DNA of 41,122 bases, taken from assembly GCA_002633005.1 (NCBI GenBank), contig NMRA01001034.1, positions 25,459 to 66,580 on the forward strand. Direction: 5' to 3'. The notes below the pieces were generated by a model. The model searched no databases, was not told the DNA's origin, and saw nothing but the letters and a program-made list of their open reading frames with translations. Each line of letters begins with the position of its first letter. The first letter of the stretch is position 1. The translations under genes were made by a program, and so were the position numbers. Source of the DNA: Phoronis australis. Lineage: Eukaryota; Animalia; Phoronida. Positions 1 to 37,883 of this stretch are shown here, one piece after another.

Positions 1-1540
1 CCATATATCCTCTTTCTCATTTTCAGTGACTCTTGCAAATACTGTAGTCCCGAGACATGATCCCTTGAATTATAGTATGCACTGCCAACGTGACTTAAAG
101 AAGACGCAATGTCGGGATGGTCAACGTCGCCATATATCCTCTTTCTCATTTTCAGTGAGTCTTGCAAATACTGTAGTGCCGAGACATGATCACTAGAATT
201 GTTGTATGCCCTGCCAACGTTAGTTAAAGAAGACGCAATGTCGGGATGGTCAACGTCGCCATATATCCTCTTTCTCATTTTCAGTGAGTCTTGCAAATAC
301 TGTAGTGCCGAGACATGATCACATGAATTGTTGTATGCAGTGCCAACGTCACTTAAACAAAACGCAATATCGGGATGGTCAATGTCGCCATATATCCTCT
401 TTCTCATTTTCAGTGAATCTTGCAAATACTGTAGTGCCGAGACATGATCCCTTGAATTGTTGTATACACTACCAATGTCACTTAAAGAAGACGCAATGTA
501 GAGATTGTCAACGTCGCCAAACATCCTCTTTCTCATTTTCATTGAGTCTTGCAAATACTGTAGTGCCGAGACATGATCACTTGAATTGTTGTATGCACCG
601 CCAACGTTACTTAAAGAAGACGCAATGTCGGGATGGTCAACGTCGCCATATATCCTCTTTCTCATTTCCAGTGACTCTTGATAATACTCCAGTGCCGAGT
701 CATAATATTTTGATTTGTTGTATGCAGTGCCAACGTAACTTAAAGAAGACGCAATATCGGCATGATCAACGTTACCATATATCCTCTTTCTCATTTTCAG
801 AGAGTCTTGAACATACTGTAGCGCCGAGACATGATCACTCGAATTGATGTATGCACGGCCAACGTCATTTAAACAAGACGCAATGTCGGGATGGTCAACG
901 TCGCCATGTATCCTCTTTCTCATTTTCAGTGAGTCTTGCAAGTACTGTAGTTCAGAGACATGATCACTTGAATTCTTGTATGCACCGGCAAAGTTACTTA
1001 AAGAAGACGCAATGTCGGGATGATCAACGTCGCCATATATCCTCTTTCTCATTTCCAATGACTCTTGACAATAGTGTAATGCCGAAGGATGATCCTTTGA
1101 GTTGTTGTATGCATCCCCAACGTCACTTAAACAAGTCGCAATGTCGGGATGGTCAACGTCGCCATATATCCTCTTTGCCATTTCCAGTGACTCTTGATAA
1201 TAATGTAGTGCCGATACATAATCTCTTGACATGTTGTATGCAATGCCAACGTCACTTAAAGAAGACGCAATGTCGGGATGGTCAACGTCGCCATATATCC
1301 GTTTTCTCATTTTCAGTGACTCTTGATAATACTGTAGTGCCGAGACATGATCACTAGAGTCGTTGTATGCACTGCCAACGTTACTTAAACATGACGCAAT
1401 ATCGGGATGGTCAATGTCGACATACATCTTCCTTGTCATTCTCAATGACCTTTTATGGTACTGTAATTCTCTATCATGCTTTCTCATTTTACCGTAGATT
1501 GACCCTACATGACCCAATGTCTTTGCAATACTCGGATTGT
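1..1540 (-). repeat. Coding tandem repeat, 129-bp (43-aa) TPR unit; 11 highly similar copies plus 1 diverged, continuing off-window
   Basis: ccatatatcc recurs at 1, 130, 259 etc. Consensus peptide HPDIASSLSxVGxAYNNSxDHVSALQYLQDSLKMRKRIYGDVD (kinesin-light-chain/TPR_10-12 type). Confidence 0.95.
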
Positions 1541-3703
1541 CATTGTTTAAATGGATTTTCCTACTTAACCTTTCTGCATCTTCGGCTGCATCTGTTGCTT
1601 TATTGTTTTCTCCCATCGCACAATGCACCCTAGCAAGGAGACATTTAACTGAAACGGTATCATCTTGTTCGCCTTCTTTCAAAAGTTTCAGTGTTTTAAT
1701 CGATGATAAACACCATTTCAAGGAATGTTCGTAGTTTCCATGATTATAGTACGCCATGGCTATCAGCTGCTTCAGTCTGGCTATTGTTCGGAGATATGAG
1801 TCCTCGTTCATATTCATTGATTCAATGGAAAATTCTTGAAAAAATGGTTCTCTGCTTAGCGCTTTCTTGAGATCTTCAAGTAACTGGTTTGATAGTCTCA
1901 TTCCAACCTCTTCCTGCTTCTTCGTAATTTCTAATGCTTGCATGTAAAAATTAATTGCAGAAGCATTTTGTCCTTTAAGGAAATACGCTTCCCCTATTAA
2001 CTGAAGACAATGACATACAGATCTGTCTTCGTGGTCACAGAAAACATCATGTCCCTTGTAGTGCACCACTATGTCTTCTGTCTGTGTGTGTGGCGATTTC
2101 TTCTCCCAAACGTTTTCAATGTGTGTGAAAAATGTCTCTAACGCGTTGTCATAGCGAAAGCAGCAAAGCTCTATGCAACCCTCGTAAAAATAATTTTTCT
2201 CAAAAAATGACGCCCCAATCGTTTTTGTTATGAATGCAAGAACGAATGACCCATCTGTAATACATTTAACTAACGGGTAGATAGAATAATAGTATCGGAC
2301 TATCAAATGTTTGAAATCGCCATACGGCTTACCTAGCAACACAACGTCTTCCATTTGTCTACGCTGACTGCAATACTGTACAAATCTGAATAGACTGACA
2401 AATGAGACTATAAAGAGTAAGTTGTGCCTACCATCAGGTGACAAAATGGCCATGGATTTCATTTCATCAATGAGATCCCAAGTGTTGTCCTTAGTCAAAT
2501 TGAAAATAGCTTTAAATAAGGTGAGGACCAAGGTGGGCAGTCTGTACATTTCCTTTTTTATGTCATGAACATTTCCTGGCTTGTTGTGGAAGCTAAGCTC
2601 ATACAAGAACTCGTCCACAACATTGCGTATGTCACTGAAATATTTCATCCGTGCTTCTTCCTCCTTCTGGTGACGCGCTCGCTCTTGCCTGAATTCCTTC
2701 AGCAAGGATTCGTCTCCGTCAAGTTGCATTGTTGACATAAGAACGCGATCGAAGTTATACCCCTCTTTAATTGCCTGTCTGACTTCACACATTTCAGCCA
2801 TGTGTTTTGGTGTCTTGATTAATTCTATTCCGGCTTTACCTGGTCTATCAGGTCGCCCAAGTGGTGTCTTGCATGCGAATGGTACTGCACTATCAAATTC
2901 AAACCCACGAGCTACCACGTCATCAACAAACCAATTTCTACCTGGTGTGTCGTAGTCATTAAGTGACTTGATATGCATACTCTTAAGGTTTGTCTCCCGA
3001 ATATTTAAGACAAACAAGTGCATAAGTCTAGTCATATCTCTGAAGTACTCAAGATCTTGCTCGTCATTCTTTACCAAAATGGCCCATTCCAAGTCCGAAT
3101 AGGGTGTTACCTCTCCCCTTCCCAAAGAGCCCATGGCAAACGCTGCGTAGTCCTGTGGGGGTGGGCCTAAAATTTCTCTGCATTTTGAGAGAAGGTATTT
3201 ATTGAAACATTGCATGTGTGAGCACAAGGTCCGAAATATTGTTCTAGTTTCTTCAACAAATACTGCTTCTAATTTTATTCGCTCACTATCCGGTGCTTTT
3301 AAGTTGAGTTCACTAGCAAAAGTGCGCAGTAGCTCATCGGCTCCTGGAGAGGTCTGGATTCTGACATTTCTCAATTTTTCTACCACTTCGGACCTAAAAT
3401 CCATTGGTATTTTGCTACCAGACAGACAAAGCGTGGTACAGAATGCCGTTTCATTGTCTCTTATTAAGATCTCCAACTCCTCAGTCATTTCAGTTTCAAC
3501 TCTCAGTATAGCGGCGTTATATAAGGCTGAAGCAGTAACGAAGTGTTGAGTACATTTTTGTAATAGCCCTCGCTTTTTGTAAATATCACCCATCTTTTGA
3601 AGGATTTTTCCACCTGACTCTGATTTTCTGTCATCCTTGCTTAGTTTTTTAAGCTTGGATGCTAATGAGACTTCTTCTTTGTCCAGCTGTGATGACACTT
3701 CAT
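1..3703 (-). CDS. Giant exon (3' end beyond window) of a nucleotidyltransferase (DUF294/GlnD-GlnE-like) + helical + TPR-array protein, >=1234 codons
   Basis: Hand translation gives an uninterrupted minus frame from acceptor ttgcag|AT GAA (3703) to position 1. N-terminal part LQKMGDIYKKRG...ASALYNAAILR; NTase signature LGPPPQDYAAFAMGSLGRGEVTPYSDLEWAIL (G-x11-D-x-E at 3087-3131); RGFEFDSAVPFACKTPLGR (~2855-2909); helical region HDIKKEMYRLPTLVL...LLFIVSFVSLFRFVQY (~2375-2567); about 3 diverged TPRs (~1560-2040), then 43-aa TPR repeats. Confidence 0.9.
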
Positions 3704-4736
3704 CTGCAATTATGTTGAACTGTTAATTGAAATAAGACTGTACAGGCATTAAATGTATCCCACTACCACTCTAATAGGTATGAGTTTTTAGTTTTGAGTG
3801 TTCTTAGCTAGGTCTTGTCGTCCAAGTACATGTATTTGACCTACAAGACACTGGACTAACAATGACAAAAGCAAAAATGTATCAAAATTTGGTAATGAAA
3901 TATTTTGAAAGAAATCAGCCCATCTCTTCAGTATTTTTACTTTTTAAAGTGACTTTTTTTCAGAGACAACACACGTGTCAAAACATTGAAGTAATGAAAT
4001 GGACTGGCGGAGGAGGCGGGGTCTTGAATCTTTTCAGATTGGCAGTTCTGCATTCTACAAAAATTGTGTGGTTTAACCACGTGCCTTATTTATTTTGTGT
4101 TGTCATGATTACACCTCACCAAGTCTTAAAGTCTAACATTAACGGAATTTTGTTATTTTAGGTGTATATGGCTAACCAGCTAGTCCTACGCCCTTCTAAA
4201 TAATAGGTGAATCTGCCTTTTTGTACCATGTTGTATTTTCAGGTGTTACTGTTCAAGGTAGGCTTTAGGACTTAAATTTTCAGCACCCAATTCACAGAAG
4301 AAGACATGAAATAACTTATGAACACACACGTGCCATCGATGATTTTGGACATTTTAAGATGTATACTTTACAGGATTGTATTATGCCATACGAACATGGC
4401 TTGAACTTAGACACATGGTTAATGATTTATTGACCAAAATAAAGCTCATCACTTCTTTATAACCACTATAATGTCGATTGTATTCCACAAAGTTAGGATA
4501 TTTTTTATATGAATTGCGCATGCTTGTTTTTGGAAAAAACCATACTACAAATTGGAAGCGTGTTCTGAACAAGACAATCTTGTCTGATTTCATGGCATTT
4601 TGTTTCCCCATTAGAACGAGAATCAATCTCATTGATCTATGGTCAAAATATACATGCAATTATGCCGCCTCTATAAAATCACCCCAAATTCGATTTTCCA
4701 CAACATTGCAACACGATTGCTTTCTTTTCGTTATAC

Positions 4737-4895
4737 CTGACACGTCTGTTGCTTCACCCTCGTCGGCCTGTTTATCGCTGTCTGATGAAGGACAGCCTGA
4801 TGATGGTCCATGTGCCGGCTCCTGCGCTTCCTTCCCTGACGTAGTACAGACCTCATCTACAGACCTGTCTTCTGTGTTCTTCATGTCGTCACATT
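4737..4895 (-). CDS. Duplicated symmetric (phase 1-1) 159-nt exon, copy 1; acidic Ser-rich disordered peptide
   Basis: tgcag|AA TGT GAC...GTG TCA G|gtataa; ECDDMKNTEDRSVDEVCTTSGKEAQEPAHGPSSGCPSSDSDKQADEGEATDVS; phase matches the acceptor at 3703. Confidence 0.7.
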
Positions 4896-5715
4896 CTGCA
4901 TACACATTCAATGACTGCAGTTATGTTGAACTGTTATGTAAACAAGACTACAAAATTTAAATGTATCGTACACTCTATTTCTACCCACTTTAATAATGGT
5001 TTGAAATTTTAATATTTATCTTATCGTCCCAGCGCTTGATCAGCTAGTCACTTGATTTATAATGACACAAGCAAAATGTATCAACATCAGGTATTAAGAT
5101 ATCTTGTAGGAAACCAGTCGGCGTTTACAATAATTTTTAAACTCATTTTATATTTGAAAATGTAGCCAGAAACAATAAATGTATCATAGCAGGAAGGAAT
5201 TTTCTTCCGGTTTGAAGACTGAATAAAAAAATCATATTAGTAGATTACTTCATGGGGGTGCTTAAATGGGGGACTGGAATTTCATGTCGTGATCAGATGT
5301 AGCGATAACAACCAAAACTAAATCAGGCATGTGGTCAACCCACGGCCACACTATTTTTGTAGAACGCAGAGATTCCGAAAAAGGATGAAACTACCGCTTC
5401 CGCCGCCAGTGCTTCTCATAACTAAATACGAACGTGGCCTGAAATTAGACCCATGTTTAATGACGTATACATCAAAATAAAAGTATATCACCTCCGATCA
5501 ACCACGCCAAAACATTCGAAATTTGAAGCATGTTTCGCTCAAAACAAGTTTCCTTTTAGAACTATAGTCAATTTCAATAAAATGAGATAATACAACAAAA
5601 ACGACAAAAATCGTCCAAATGCATTGTGCAAGTACTACACGTCTTTTCAATATGATATGATGTTTAGTTGATCAAATTGTTACACCGCAACTTGATTGGT
5701 TTCCTGTGGTTATAC

Positions 5716-5874
5716 CTGACACGTCTGTTGCTTCACCTTCGTCGACCTTTTTATCACTGTCTAATGAAAAAGAGCGTGAAGATGGTCCATGTGCCAGCCG
5801 CTGCGCTTTCTTCCCAGATTTGGTGCAGACCTCATCTATACACCTGTCTTCGGGGTTCTTGCTGTTATCACATT
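5716..5874 (-). CDS. Duplicated symmetric 159-nt exon, copy 2
   Basis: tgcag|AA TGT GAT...TCA G|gtataa; ECDNSKNPEDRCIDEVCTKSGKKAQRLAHGPSSRSFSLDSDKKVDEGEATDVS. Confidence 0.7.
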
Positions 5875-7701
5875 CTGCATGCATATTGAACGACTGTCTT
5901 GGTTATGGAGAAATTGCTTTCAATTGCACAAAAATTGCTTGCATATTTCGCAAACCTAAAGTGTATGGGTGTTAAGGGTAAAATGACCAACTTGATCCAA
6001 ATTTCCAACTTCAGAGACTGTGTCTTTCAATCATTCTGCTTGTTACAACCACGTCATTGTTAATTTATTGAAATACACGTTTATTCGCAGCCAGTGTGTG
6101 TGGCTTGAGATTTTTGTGTCCGTGGCCTCATTTTATATGATGGCTAGGAGAGGACATTTTATGATTATAAATTCAGAAACTAATTCACGTGGTGGCGCTA
6201 TAACCAAGCCAGTAGGTCAGTAACGCTAAGAAATCGCTATAAAGAAAGACTTCGCAAAATTACGTGGGATATTGCCGTGTATTTTAAATGGAAGACACGT
6301 GATTTTAGCGGGGTTTGAGCTAGGTCCTAGAGTAGGTCATAGCGTTAATTGATGAACTCTACCCATCACAGACGGAAATTGCCGTTCAGTAACAAGTGAA
6401 CGATCAATTAGTGTTTTGTTTTAAGTCCAAGCATTTACTCAAGGTCTTTGGCACACTGTCGTAGCGAGAGGTTTTCAGATGGTGAAGTCAAATTTGGCAA
6501 CCAATTAATCGACCGTCCGGGCTTGTTGAAAAATAGTCAAGTTATCCATTATCTACAAATGCGCTGAAAGCTCCTTTTTTAGCAGTGGGCCATGGCTACC
6601 TTATGCCCCGCCGTAGAGTACGCCTCTAGGTGGACCATGGCCTATGATTTGGCACCAACATTTCACCTCACTTCTTTCAACTGAGAGTAGCTTATACCTT
6701 TTTGCACAAAAAATATAATGCCATTTGTGCATGAAATCCAAGTCTATTTGTCACTGTTACCACGAATCCGTACCTAAAAAAATTCGCAAAGTTATGTGAG
6801 ATATTGCCGTGTATTTTAAATGAAGCCACGTGATTTAGCTGGATTTGAGCGAGATCTTAGCGTAGGTCCTAGAGTTACTGAACTCTACCCGGTCGTCCGT
6901 CTTTCCGACTCACCGCCGGAAATTAGTGTTTTGGTGCAAGTCCAAACATTAATGATTTGCTAAATGCCTATGGCACACTGGCGTGCTGAAGAATATTTAA
7001 GTGACCCAAGCTATACACTCTCGCCGAAAAAATCTTTTCGGGACTGAGAAGGTGGGACATGGACCCCTTATGCCCCGCCGTAGAGTGCACCTCTAGGTGG
7101 ACCATGGCCTATGCTTTTGCACCAACATTTCACTTCACTTATTGCAACTGAGAGAAGCTTATACCTTTTTGCACAATAATTATAATTCCATTCAATGTGC
7201 AAGCAATCCTAATCCATTTGAAACAAGACTGTGTCAAATTTTAAAAATTCACTTAAATAAAGTAGTGAGTTTTCAATATTAAGCCTACACCGCCTCTCAT
7301 CACAAAATATAACGGTGACTTGGACTTAGATCTATTTTTCATGACCTATATTACAAAATGTAAATATATCACCTCCACACAATCACCCTAAATTCGATTT
7401 TCTACAACGTTAGGGAGTTTTTGATAGTTTTGAGATGAAAAGGCGTTTTTTTTTTCGTAAACAACTCCACTAAATTTGAAGCGTGCTTTGAACAAGACAA
7501 TTTCGTCTCATTTACTGACATTTTTTCATCTCATTAGGACATGAGTGAATCTCATTGACATGAGGTGACAATATCGAAACAACAAAAACCGCTCAAATAC
7601 TGTACATCTTTTGCAGGCACTATGATTACTGTTTTATCTGATTATGAGTTTTGTTGATCAAATTGTTACATTACAAGCTGATTGCTTTCCTGACATCATA
7701 C

Positions 7702-7848
7702 CTGACACGTCTGTTGCTTCACCCTCGTCGACCTGTTTATCGGTGTCTAATGAAAGAGAGCTTGATGATGGTCCATGTCCCGGCCCTTGCGCTTCCTTCT
7801 CAGATTCGATAAGGACATCATCTATAGACCTCTCGCTGTTGACAGATT
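7702..7848 (-). CDS. Duplicated symmetric 147-nt exon, copy 3
   Basis: tgcag|AA TCT GTC...TCA G|gtatga; ESVNSERSIDDVLIESEKEAQGPGHGPSSSSLSLDTDKQVDEGEATDVS; 12 nt shorter than the other copies, frame preserved. Confidence 0.7.
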
Positions 7849-8564
7849 CTGCATGCATATTGAATAACTCTCCTGGTTATGAAGGAACTGTTTTGAATTG
7901 TGCACAAAAAGCGCACATGTTTTAAACCAACAGTGCTCGTGTGTGTGTGTTAAGGGTAAAATGGCCAATTTGATGCAAATTCGCACAATTTCCAATTTCA
8001 GAGATCTTGTTTTTTCAATCGTTTTGCTTGTTACATTCACTGCATCACTAATTCATCAAAATACACGTTTAATCGAGGGATGAGTTCTTAACAATAAACC
8101 TCCACTGCCTCTCATCTCTAACATGACTTGAACCAAGATCTATGTTACATGACTTATATTTTCGTATTCAATAACCGAAAATTCGATTTTCCACAACGTT
8201 AGGGAATTATGGTCGTTTTGATATGAAAAGCGTAATTTTTCCTAAACAACCCCATTAAAAATTGGAAGCGTGTTTTGAACAAGACAAATTCGTCTTATTT
8301 AATGACATTTTGTCTTCTCACTAGGACATGAGTAAATCTCATTGAAATGAGGCGATACTACCAAAACAACGAAAAACAAACGATCAAAGACATGCCTTGC
8401 AGGTACCATGAGCCCTATGAATCCTATTATTATTTACATCCCTTCTAGACCTTTGCCGGTTGCGAAACGGACCCACTCCCAAATTACTCGGGTGACTGTT
8501 GATAATGCCAAAACTACAGTTGTTGTTGAATTTGGTTGGTCAACTTGTTACATTACAACCTGAT

Positions 8565-8594
8565 TGTCTTCGGGGTTCTTGCTGTCGTCACATT
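8565..8594 (-). pseudogene. Truncated fourth copy of the mini-exon (pseudo-exon, donor site deleted)
   Basis: Acceptor and first ~10 codons (ECDDSKNPED) match copy 2, then the sequence jumps to intron sequence (tgattg|tcttcgggg), losing ~145 bp including the donor. Confidence 0.6.
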
Positions 8595-11500
8595 CTGCAT
8601 GCATATTGAACGACTGTCTTGGTTATGGAGAAATTGCTTTCAATTGCACAAAAATTGCTTGCATATTTCGCAAACCTAAAGTGTATGGGTGTTAAGGGTA
8701 AAATGACCAATTTGATCCAAGTTCGCACAATTTCCGAGACTTCTGCTTGTTACACCCACTTCATCATTTATTTATCAAAATACACATTTATTCGCAGCCA
8801 TTTTGTGTGACGTGAGATTTTTGTGGCTGTGGTGTCATTTTGTATGATGGACAGGAAGGACGGATATTTTAGGATGATTAATTCCGAAACTAATCACGTG
8901 GTGGCTCTGTGACCCAGTCATACCGGGATAGAGTCTAGTAAAGGTAAGACCTCGCTAAAAAGCTAGACTTCGCGAGATAACGTGAGGTGTTGCCGTGTAT
9001 TTCAAATGAGGACACGGGATTTTAGCTAGATTTGAGCAAGGTCCTAGCGTAAGTACCGGTAAAGCAACACGTTTAATTTTCAAAAATAGTACCCCCACCC
9101 AAATTTTTGCCAAGGTTTCTCACTTATAAAATGACTTTGACCCCAAAACCTAAAATAGCAGAATTATTTTCGAGTACAAGGCTATTTCTTGGTTACCATA
9201 ACAAATGCACATACTCAAGCTAGACAACCCCCTAAGTTTCCTTGAAGGGAGTCACTATAAATACTTTGACGTGACTTTGCTATCACACTCAAATTTGCTG
9301 ATGTTAAGCGACTGACCGTTAGAAACCATCAAAATTAACTATACAGAAAATACAACCACACTTTCACAACCAAGACATTTAACTAAACATTAAGAAGCAG
9401 TGAGCCAAAATCATGATGTCTATGGTAACATCTTGTTCGCATCCGCCAATGCAGAATAAGAAAAAAAGGTTATCGATTATTTCTTATTGATTATAATCCT
9501 CAATATATCCAAAATTCATTTGACATTTATGTTTGCAACTGAGTTAGAGCCAACGGCGTCAGATGGCGTGAAATCTCGGAACTCTCAATTTCAGAATTGA
9601 ATAGCTTTAGTGCGGGGGTCATCAAGTGCAAACTAGAATCAGGCAGACATCCACCTAAATCATTACATGCTTTAAATTCCTTAAAAACCCAAAATCACCT
9701 CTCAGGAGCAATTTGAGACCAAATTCATAAAGGCAAATGTGTTTAAATCAATGCATTTTTGATGTTTGGAAATGCTATTTCTGCTTTAAAAACTTTCTCT
9801 CTTTGTCATCCGGGTGGAAAATATTACCAGCCAGGAAGAACACATTTCCACCCGGGTTAGAAATATTGCCATACAGGTGGAACTGTTTTACACGTGGAAG
9901 GTAATTTTTGTACTTGCATTGTAATATTTCCACCCGGTTATCAAAGAGCAAAAAGGTTTCAAAATAAGACAATTTGTACATGTCTGAAAAAATGACCGCC
10001 ATTTTCAGCCATCGTAGAAAGGTGAAAACATTCTTTTTTTCTTAGTACATGTTTTTGACAAGACAAGATGCGAAAATCTAGTAATGCGTTTTGCCACATC
10101 TTACGTATTAATCTTTGTACTTACTCGACAAACCTTTACCATGCTCAGACGTATCTTCAGGGTCAGCCATTTTCGAAATCTAAAAATAAAAACAGTTTAG
10201 GGCATGCATTCTTGGTGGTAGTCATTCAGACTCTGAGATCTTTTTCTCCCTTGGAAACCGAGAGAGCCAGAGTATGATAACGCACGTTTAGACTGGGCTC
10301 CATTGCGGCACATTTTTCAACAGCTTATGCTGAAGGCCAATCAATAACAGAGAAGCGGACATAAAAATTCCATTGTTTGATAAAAAGTTTTGATTGCGTT
10401 GTATCCTTGTGCAGATTTCCGAGTCAGCTTTGATTTTGAAACTGAAAATCGAAACCATAAGCAGGTCCCTATTTCCTAGAACCAGACCTAGACACTGTTT
10501 TGATTGCGTGTAAAGCAGCATAACACAATGACGCTATTGGGGGTGCTGCTCATACGGTTATAGCCTGGAGCGACACTGGGTTGGCCAATACAAATGCAGT
10601 CCACGAAAAAATACACGGCTTCAAGTAAGCCAGACCACACACTGACGCGAATGACGTACTGACAACTTTCAACCAATCAAATTGTTCTTAAGATTGTAGC
10701 GGTTTACTGGTTGTACTGTTCTTTGAAATCATGGAGCAGCAAATCAATTAAATAAATTTATGTCTCAAAAAATTTTAAAATTTTTACAACCTGGAAATAT
10801 TGAAATATTCAAATTAGACCTTAGAATAGTGCAGGAAATGTCTGGTAAAATGGTCTCGATTTCGAGTAATTTCCTAGACAGTAGGGGACACAGAACAGTT
10901 CTCACAGGGGTCGGTCTATCAGAACACACGTCAATGCAGTCCTCAACCTTTCTTACCTCTGTCAAAAACTGCATGCAAAGAAAGAAAAGTTTTGAGTCAT
11001 TTTACGTCACAAGCCCTACAGATGCGCATAGAAATTGTATTCCCTCTGGTATTTTTGACCCTTTCACTCCTACTGAAAGCCAAGCTAGACTAAGAAAAAT
11101 AGGGGGCAAAGAACGCAAAATCGGCACTTGTCACCCCAGCAAAACCACCCGCTTCCCTGCCGAGTGCTCGACTAAATCCAACACGGGATTTCGACAGAAA
11201 ATCTCCTACCGGCTCCAAGAATGTGGTCCAAAAGTACTGTGAACCAACTAGTTTTTTCGGGAGGGGGCGGTAGGGAGAAAGGGGGGCGGGAGGGTGGGAG
11301 GAGAGAGATAATTAACGAGTTTATTCTGTTAATTGTCCCTAATGCTCCGACTATGATTAAGCACCGGGTGTTCAATCATTATTACCATTATTTCAGAGCG
11401 GGGGTTTGAACACAAATTTTTCAACTGTGTTGATGCCGATCTCAGTCATTGTTGGTAGTTGTCTCTATTCCCTTGTAAAGTAAACGTTTGTAATTTATCG

Positions 11501-14793: not shown

Positions 14794-16243
14794 TCTTGAC
14801 TAGAAACTCGTTCGCGTAAAGTATAATGTGTTCGAGTATAATTATCTGGAATTTTTATTCAAAGCGGACCGAAAAGTATTAATAATAAGTTTAAGTTCAA
14901 TTTCTATTCAAAGCAGAACCAAAAGTGGCAATAATGAGTTCGAGTTCAATTTCAGTACAAAAATTAGACCCAGGATTGTTTCATAAACCAGCGCCTCCTT
15001 CACTTTTTACAGGAAAAAGATCCCGACGCATTTCATCCGACATCAGACCATGCTGGGAAAAGGATAACGACCCATTTCAGTTGGCTTTTTCTACTGGACA
15101 ACTAAACACTCGCACACCACCACATCAGTTTTCAACTGAAATAGTACAGACTAAAACCATGTGCTATTTTGTTCGCGGCTGAATAACGCAGTATGCAACA
15201 TGATTCGGTGGAGAGTCCAGCACCGATCTATTAGACACAAGTTTACTTCCTTGACTGTTAGAGTAAAATGTTCGCAGTGTTGTGTATTCTTTTTAGTTTA
15301 TTCCTATCGCAGGCGAACACATCCTCTGATACCCACGTCAACATCTCTTCAATTAGTTTAGTTTGGTTAAATCTAAAATCACATACTAGTAAATCTCCAC
15401 GGGTCGAACGTTTAAAAATAAAAGGATAATTTTGACAGCTAATGTCGAACCTCAAGAAAGTTACTAAATAGTAACTAGACCAATTAGAATCCCCATGCAA
15501 GACACTTACCGGATAGAAATTGGACCCATGTTATGATATGCGAATTCTGTGGCTGAGAGGTGCGTTTAATATGCAAATCCGCGCTGAGAATGTTCCAAAA
15601 TACGCTATTTTAGTGGTCTAAAGGTTAAAGTGAAACCAATAAAAATGTAAAATGTAATTTGCGTCCCCGGAATTGCCAAGTGTGGGATTTAGTAGGTAAA
15701 AGACACCTCATACAATGAACCAGGCCAATTGTTCCTCTTGGCTCCTCCAAAAGACGGCGTTCCTGTCACACTAGTAATTGGCCACTTACAACAACTCAAC
15801 CAAGTCAAAATAGTCATCGTCAATTCCGTAGTGTGTTTCAGCAGCATTGTTCTTCAAGTGAAGTAGGTCGCTGCTGCCACATTTTGCCTGTACGCTTTAC
15901 ACTTTTTTTCTGAACAGAGGAGATTGAACTGGAAAACAATTGCATTCAAAACTCTTTCCAATGAAGAACTCCTCGGCTGAGATAAAAATGTGTAGGACTC
16001 AAGGTGATGGCGCCACGAGTTCGCTGTTGTTCTTCAACTTCTCCACAGCATTAAATAGTTTTTCCACATTTATAACTGACCAAGACAAAAGGAAAAGGCC
16101 AAAAAATGAGGCAGGTCTGGTCGACTTGTTTTGACGGGACAGGGCACTCTGTTGGTAAACAAGACAACGTAGAAAATATATCTGAAACTAAATAAGGCGA
16201 TCCAGATCCTCCCAAGGATACTATTGTTTCATGAAATGAAGAA

Positions 16244-16528
16244 TATAAATCGGTAAATAAAACAACAAGAATGGATTAACTGAAATTTGAAATTTTCGGA
16301 GGTAACAACTTCCTTTATCAACAAAAATACAGTAAAAAAGTTAAAGGTAACAACTTCCTTTATCAAAAAAAAACAGAAATAAAGTAAAATCAAACACAAA
16401 ATGACAATGATTTTCATTTTGTGTTTGATTTTACTTTATTTCTGTTTTTGTTGATAAAGGAAGTTGTTACCTCCGAAAATTTCAAATTTCAGTTGATCCA
16501 TTCTTGTTGTTTTATTTACCGATTTATA
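16244..16528. mobile_element. Foldback/MITE-like near-perfect palindrome
   Basis: ~115-bp arms (tataaatcggtaaataaaacaacaagaatgga...caaacacaaaatga) around a ~10-nt loop, 1 substitution plus a ~45-bp duplication in the left arm; both ends TATA (possible TA/TATA target duplication). Confidence 0.75.

Positions 16529-21051: not shown

Positions 21052-37883
<16,832 letters not shown>

Follow-up and report, generated by a model that had tools for sequence, protein, structure and literature searches.

Gene organisation at the locus

The window (the whole stretch of Phoronis australis DNA that was analysed, 41 122 nt) is animal-type DNA of ~38–40 % GC with minisatellites. An open frame on the minus strand, at 3..3722, runs for 1240 codons without a stop and is truncated by the left window edge. 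The encoded protein has, in order, helical hairpins at its N-terminus, a nucleotidyltransferase (NTase) of DUF294 type, degenerate TPRs, one diverged TPR unit and 11 homogeneous units. The features of this predicted NTase-TPR gene are as follows.

3–1409, minus strand: homogenised array of 11 TPR_10-type units of 129 nt each (TRF, Pfam, AlphaFold); the rest of the gene lies past the window edge
1410–1538, minus strand: diverged first array unit (unit alignment)
1539–2160, bounds approximate, minus strand: helical linker with degenerate TPR-like repeats (Pfam TPR_1/2/8 at residues 573–601)
2240–3422, bounds approximate, minus strand: GlnE/DrrA-fold nucleotidyltransferase with C-terminal helical bundle (Pfam DUF294, E 1e-7; AlphaFold, fold search)
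3087–3131, minus strand: catalytic motif G198-X11-D210-X-E212 in open-frame numbering (invariant in 60/60 alignment rows)
3423–3703, minus strand: N-terminal TPR-like helical hairpins (model), where the predicted large last exon begins
4737–4895, minus strand: predicted 159 nt phase 1-1 exon encoding an acidic low-complexity linker, copy 3 (AG/GT ends, open frame)
5716–5874, minus strand: predicted 159 nt phase 1-1 exon, copy 2 of the duplicated exon (sequence)
7702–7848, minus strand: predicted 147 nt phase 1-1 exon, copy 1 of the duplicated exon (sequence)
10140–10170, minus strand: candidate first coding exon with ATG, 31 nt and a phase 1 donor (found by eye; RNA depth zero in this bin)

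A TPR_MalT match, under the Pfam cut-off, covers residues 575–734 of the helical linker. The predicted last exon would start at an AG acceptor in phase 1 at 3703, and all of the upstream candidates (three linker exons and the ATG exon) have AG/GT ends and compatible phases. These signals in the sequence suggest a multi-exon gene; no junction reads for it are present among the RNA rows listed. The linker exon with its intron flanks is tandemly tripled across 4737–8594, the copies being 68–82 % identical, and a shortened fourth copy lies near 8562–8594, the end of which would be out of phase. This duplication is a second level of repeat expansion within the gene. No Rfam match was found in the window.

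Several other features share the window. Exons of a DPP4-family peptidase are located at 24654–34651, upstream of the NTase-TPR gene and on the same (minus) strand; DPPIV_N and Peptidase_S9 matches were found in 4 of the 40 short frames scanned, and the gene is multi-exon. A near-perfect, MITE-like palindrome of 285 nt is located at 16244–16528, with 84 nt arms that are 99 % complementary and inner arms of 43 nt. Two unrelated 31 nt minisatellites (33 copies at 21517–22526 and 8 copies at 32805–33060) and a 36/72 nt array (23006–23336) are also evident. High-copy dispersed repeats at ~4130–4270, 6250–6890, 8940–9040 and 10900–11260 are abundant in DNA reads and transcribed from both strands. 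A weak match to the Anth_Ig receptor domain (15261–15530, minus strand; E 0.001, under the curated cut-off) may be due to chance.

The nucleotidyltransferase domain

For residues 1–517, AlphaFold gave a model (pLDDT 90, pTM 0.90) with a polymerase-beta core followed by a C-terminal helical bundle. It matched the AMPylase domain of DrrA (Foldseek E 4e-8; Z 25.3, rmsd 3.8, 320 residues aligned) and two domains of GlnE (Z 24.9 and 23.5), in alignments spanning 305–320 residues; other than DrrA and GlnE, no fold scored above Z 10.1 among the matches listed. Sequence identity to the DrrA, GlnE and GlnD nucleotidyltransferases is 11–15 %. The motif given for this class in PMC8097203 is G-X11-[DE]-X-[DE], and G198, D210 and E212 fit it as G-X11-D-X-E, all three being invariant in 60/60 aligned relatives. 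D277, also invariant in the 60 rows, is possibly the third carboxylate. As modelled, the enzyme is an intact GlnE/DrrA-fold nucleotidyltransferase with predicted activity. A fold match alone is the same for AMP or UMP and for adding or removing a nucleotide, and the removal domain of GlnE (Z 24.9) ties with DrrA.

The original prediction had placed an NTase where a NACHT or NB-ARC domain might be expected, and this is upheld by the GlnE/DrrA fold and by Pfam, which gave no NACHT or NB-ARC match in the 1240 residues within the window. The upstream exons encode short acidic linkers. Judged on the part within the window, the product does not belong to the NLRs.

A homogenised TPR array

The array comprises 11 tandem units of 43 codons (TRF: period 129, 11.2 copies, 85 % matches), with 39 codons of unit 11 visible before the window edge, and is contained entirely within one open frame, free of introns. 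Pairwise, the units are 80–95 % identical in DNA (mean 87 %) and 75 % identical in protein, which bears out the homogenised array of 11 units that had been proposed. The same proposal described the scaffold as near invariant, often to the codon; the high identity between units agrees with this, but the claim for codons was overstated, as 15/43 columns are invariant in protein and only 6/43 in codon. Homogeneity is specific to this array, since over 36 columns its units are 73 % identical to one another, and none of 85 other arrays examined exceeds 43 % identity to them. Identity to the majority residue averages 85 % (range 72–93 % over 11 units, protein), and thus reaches, at the borderline, the fungal-type level of ~85 % internal identity over at least 100 residues, by a measure other than T-REKS. 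Over the whole array piN/piS is 0.81, and changes at conserved core positions are present in single units.

The AlphaFold model of 120..1538 shows regular helix pairs (pLDDT 93.6). In a modelled unit, helix A occupies positions −2 to 13, a loop positions 14–16, and helix B follows; the unit numbering agrees with both the consensus TPR and this model. Across the units, column 6 reads NDDNDYNDDNH and column 9 SIDGRTGSTRS, exactly the residues first quoted for them. Sequence searches of solved structures returned TPR proteins only among the matches listed. Assembly collapse or error was considered as a source of the array and seems unlikely: the units, in their presumed order, differ by 5–20 % but have no indels, and variants of this kind are seen again among the RNA reads.

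Reshuffling of repeats had also been proposed. Informative site pairs within the array are frequently incompatible (44/91), but a PHI-like test was significant for one of four window sizes (p = 0.57, 0.20, 0.09 and 0.007). Exchange between units in this array is thus only hinted at. Repeat exchange may be the cause of its homogeneity. The distance between units shows no trend with array position (rho −0.07, p 0.62).

Variation and tests for selection at groove positions

In the co-crystals described in PMC1261162, the ligand is contacted by TPR positions 2, 5, 6, 9, 12 and 13, the groove positions originally named, and the model places positions 2–13 in helix A. These six positions vary more than random six-site sets (permutation p 0.008). 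Variable sites fall on the concave face, as assigned from TPR numbering (PMC1261162 and the model) rather than from coordinates, with the exceptions of position 15, in the loop, and position 24, in helix B. The groove bias originally described is therefore real for the set as a whole, but at positions 15 and 24, outside the groove, variation equals or exceeds that at position 6. Unlike in the homologous family arrays, position 6 varies here and position 2 is fairly fixed.

Codon models were fitted with our own code under two frequency models. A positively selected class was not supported over the whole array (M1a–M2a p 0.30–0.38, M7–M8 p 0.14–0.22, M8a–M8 p 0.12–0.15). In fixed-site tests against omega 1 on the codon-aligned units, position 9 gave omega 3.7 (p 0.006, which fails correction for 43 sites), position 15 omega 2.7 (p 0.06), position 24 omega 2.3 (p 0.19), position 6 omega 1.8 (p 0.36) and the groove set of six omega 1.5 (p 0.18). 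Exposed helix-B positions gave omega 0.78 and core TPR positions omega 0.65; the core value is not significantly below 1, and the core is no more tightly constrained than the rest of the array. The diversifying selection that had been suggested for the array is therefore supported at position 9 alone, as a single site, and neither at position 6 nor in the array-wide tests; the site-wise dN/dS that was to decide the matter exceeds 1 significantly at position 9 before correction and not at position 6.

A tree-free count against 16 four-fold sites divided the two positions similarly (position 9, p 0.007–0.027; position 6, p ~0.4). The position-9 statistic was matched by a neutral site in 0/179 simulations without and 4/182 with recombination, the simulated arrays being less diverged than the data (91 % versus 87 % identity). 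A column with at least six residues arose somewhere in the 43 codons in 122/400 simulations without positive selection. A single-site test of position 9 is reasonable because the family data, below, also single out column 9. A CpG hot spot was rejected as a source of the variation at positions 6 and 9: the first codon base of site 6 and the second codon base of site 9 each take all four letters, mostly in non-CpG context. Selection for new groove residues may have acted on the array, with support at position 9 only, and the array variation could represent different recognition specificities.

Arrays in homologous proteins

Arrays of at least five units were found in 86/205 family proteins. Besides that of the window, 24 are at least 65 % identical internally, of which 15 are named amphioxus paralogues and hence non-independent cases. 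Arrays of 10–18 units at 70–80 % identity are present in amphioxus. The groove was compared with six helix-B positions that we chose as exposed ones on the basis of general TPR structure. Heterozygosity was greater in the groove in 24/24 of these arrays (0.59 versus 0.20), and in 59/59 when the identity threshold was lowered to 50 %. Among the five most variable columns of each of the 24 arrays, position 9 occurred in 19, position 2 in 18, position 31 in 16, position 13 in 15 and position 12 in 14. Position 6 occurred in none, and is Asn in 243/270 family units. Position 31, at the end of helix B, is nearly fixed in the window array. The family thus shows the groove-biased pattern more clearly than the window array does.

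At the DNA level, arrays in or beside NTase genes were taken from 9 of the 95 loci retrieved and formed four partly overlapping sets, several of the arrays being in another open frame than the enzyme motif. Across the four sets, groove omega ranged over 0.77–1.13 and in none of them exceeded 1 significantly; for helix B the range was 0.24–0.45, below 1 in all four. The groove thus escapes the constraint acting on other exposed sites. Position 9 was significantly above 1 in one of the four sets, which is bacterial (omega 7.0, p 0.0045; 20 tests).

Transcription and read variation

DNA reads that contain the region came from one sample, and raw RNA reads from three samples with the same species label. 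RNA depth on the unique coding part is 0–4×. Reads over one unit numbered 108, 84 and 261 in the three samples, nearly all in the expected orientation if the libraries were of the usual stranded type. The NTase-TPR gene is therefore transcribed at a low level and from the correct strand. Unit reads pool all units and paralogues, so that variants are not assignable to this gene or to its alleles; 8 of the 40 variant rows listed are absent from the 11 units of the window, and variants fall on both helices. Outside the array, the 16 coding rows listed comprise 8 synonymous and 8 non-synonymous differences and no stop. Summed contig depth is ~1700–3600 on the unit and 60–160 on most unique bins, a contrast that is not a copy number but hints at many more units in the genome.

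Distribution of the family

A search with the enzyme region returned 60 relatives of 26–47 % identity, most of them named Branchiostoma and one a soft coral. Cluster representatives of all origins numbered 1538 at E 0.001 or better and 1057 at E 1e-10 or better; those named among 20 representatives are from amphioxus, the annelid Owenia, the hemichordate Saccoglossus and the amoeba symbiont Jidaibacter. In amphioxus the family has undergone expansion. Additional domains in the 14 relatives scanned are CARD in two amphioxus proteins, IRF in one, OTU in one annelid protein and F-box in two others. UniRef labels members automatically as PII-uridylyltransferase-like. The animal family appears to be undescribed in the main text of open-licence papers and preprints, and domain tables in supplements may list it.

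Scanning prokaryotic genomes yielded 17 loci labelled chlamydial, gammaproteobacterial or uncultured bacteria. Seven are of chlamydial lineage, or nine when Holosporaceae and Midichloriaceae are included. All five bacterial genomes searched, four of them labelled intracellular, have 8–19 matches, which are not copy numbers. On one Midichloriaceae contig (G001:C17:14891-41957) seven NTase matches are clustered within 27 kb. None of 45 pattern matches in the viral collection was confirmed. In a midpoint-rooted FastTree, which is approximate, covers 132 of 284 domains and has no true root, the window NTase domain falls together with metagenome loci and a protein of Owenia, at a support of 0.93.

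The Owenia protein P0145 has the order OTU-DUF294-TPR, as do some chlamydial NEX2 members, and may reflect gene transfer or contamination of the assembly by a symbiont. The large relatives P0062, P0063, P0064 and P0065 each have two or three stretches matching the enzyme query, which suggests tandem NTase modules in a single chain.

Possible function and alternative explanations

The preferred explanation, to which we give about an even chance of being correct, is a defence protein that joins variable target binding to an AMPylase-like enzyme and works like the fungal NLR sensors of high internal conservation. The groove of its TPR array would likely bind a variable protein, probably one that is foreign or altered by a parasite. 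Transfer of a nucleotide (most likely AMP) by the NTase, to the bound target or to a downstream host protein, would follow as the defence response. Family expansion, the CARD, IRF and OTU fusions and the relatives in intracellular bacteria are among the points in its favour; the reaction, the bound protein and the part played in defence are each presumptive.

Much of the same evidence may be read as ordinary tandem-repeat turnover, in which the groove is merely unconstrained, the host target is fixed and the variation drifts. The non-significant array-wide tests, the groove omega of about 1 in related arrays, the frequency of six-residue columns in simulations without positive selection and the spread of RNA variants across helix B too all accord with drift. 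Drift alone, however, sits poorly with the constraint on exposed helix-B sites in related arrays where the groove has none, with the recurrence of the same groove columns between arrays, with position 9 exceeding 1 both here and in one bacterial set, and with gene expansion and CARD/IRF fusions; we consider it unlikely. It is improbable that relaxed selection acts on the gene as a paralogue that is young or in decay, in which case its array pattern would say little on function: the piN/piS of the array, a core omega not significantly below 1, single units altered at conserved core positions and low RNA depth over the enzyme region would all fit, yet the 1240 codons are free of stops, the motif is intact, the differences listed outside the array are balanced and include no stop, in-frame upstream exon candidates are present and the gene is transcribed.

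The enzyme itself permits other roles. It may remove nucleotides, as the N-terminal domain of GlnE does, or act as a decoy, in either case reversing what effectors of intracellular bacteria have modified, with the groove tracking effectors or their targets. The tie between the GlnE removal domain and DrrA, and the close relatives in intracellular bacteria together with the NEX2 proteins of PMC4209131, lend this some appeal, but no result favours removal and, of the three best-scoring folds, two belong to transferases, leaving it a small chance. Synthesis of a small nucleotide messenger upon ligand binding by the TPRs, instead of protein modification, would make the protein a cGAS-like receptor. 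The two enzymes belong to the same polymerase-beta superfamily, and PMC8195603 describes an oyster protein with a cGAS-like domain followed by TPRs; DrrA and GlnE are nevertheless the only strong folds, and neither Mab-21/cGAS nor OAS appears among the Pfam and fold matches listed, so that of all these explanations this one seems the most remote.

A wider proposal may also be made, which we consider less likely than not. Marine invertebrates would possess a class of innate immune receptor-enzymes that is as yet undescribed, has expanded repeatedly and is common to them and the effectors of intracellular bacteria. It would be a third kind of animal AMPylase, the specificity of which is reprogrammed by shuffling homogenised TPR units without the ATPase switch of NLRs. 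If true, the homogenised-yet-hypervariable sensor strategy best known in fungal NLRs would extend to ATPase-free animal enzymes and be linked to putative effectors of intracellular bacteria. The family in any case supplies many AMPylase candidates with an intact GlnE/DrrA-type site, beyond Fic and SelO in animals. Repeats with this pattern are already known in themselves; most of the news lies in the enzyme and in where it occurs.

Comparison with known systems

The enzyme is of a kind that has otherwise been studied in bacteria. It resembles DrrA/SidM, GlnE (GS-ATase) and GlnD in fold (Z 23.5–25.3) and in its G-X11-D-X-E motif, and differs from them in being encoded by an animal, fused to a TPR array and only 11–15 % identical. 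According to a 2021 review (PMC8097203), the AMPylases of animals are Fic and SelO only, with more expected.

In Ectocarpus, the repeat modules of NB-ARC-TPR and ROCO-LRR candidate receptors are likewise proposed to be fast-evolving ligand sensors, but there the repeat-encoding exons are shuffled (PMC3341825), whereas the window array is intron-free. The TPR-CHAT and glycosyltransferase-TPR proteins of corals (PMC12314368) also join an enzyme to TPRs without NACHT and are expanded in marine animals, the enzyme being other than the NTase found here.

A similar domain order is that of Neochlamydia NEX2, described in PMC4209131 as putative host-directed effectors with the arrangement F-box-(OTU)-DUF294-TPR, the F-box being N-terminal and present in most members. 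Both have DUF294 in mid-protein followed by C-terminal TPRs, and NEX2 genes are expanded within the genome. By comparison with this description, rather than with NEX2 sequences, the window gene differs in being animal-type and, by its predicted exons, intron-bearing, with a highly homogenised array; no F-box or OTU match was found by Pfam in the part seen. The bacterial relatives identified here, which are chlamydial and otherwise intracellular and include one with an F-box, resemble NEX2.

High internal conservation is described for the TPR, ANK and WD40 repeats of fungal NLRs, as are positive selection and length polymorphism (PMC4986451, PMC13449251). Such highly conserved repeats are reported in 0.8 % of metazoan repeat proteins (PMC4986451) and in 5.59 % of ATPase-free repeat proteins (PMC13449251). 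The part of the window protein seen here is set apart from the fungal NLRs by having no NACHT/NB-ARC ATPase. The analogy between the arrays that was drawn originally is nonetheless supported (PMC4986451), as the window array shares with them near-identical repeats, variation on the concave face and a KLC-like type of TPR.
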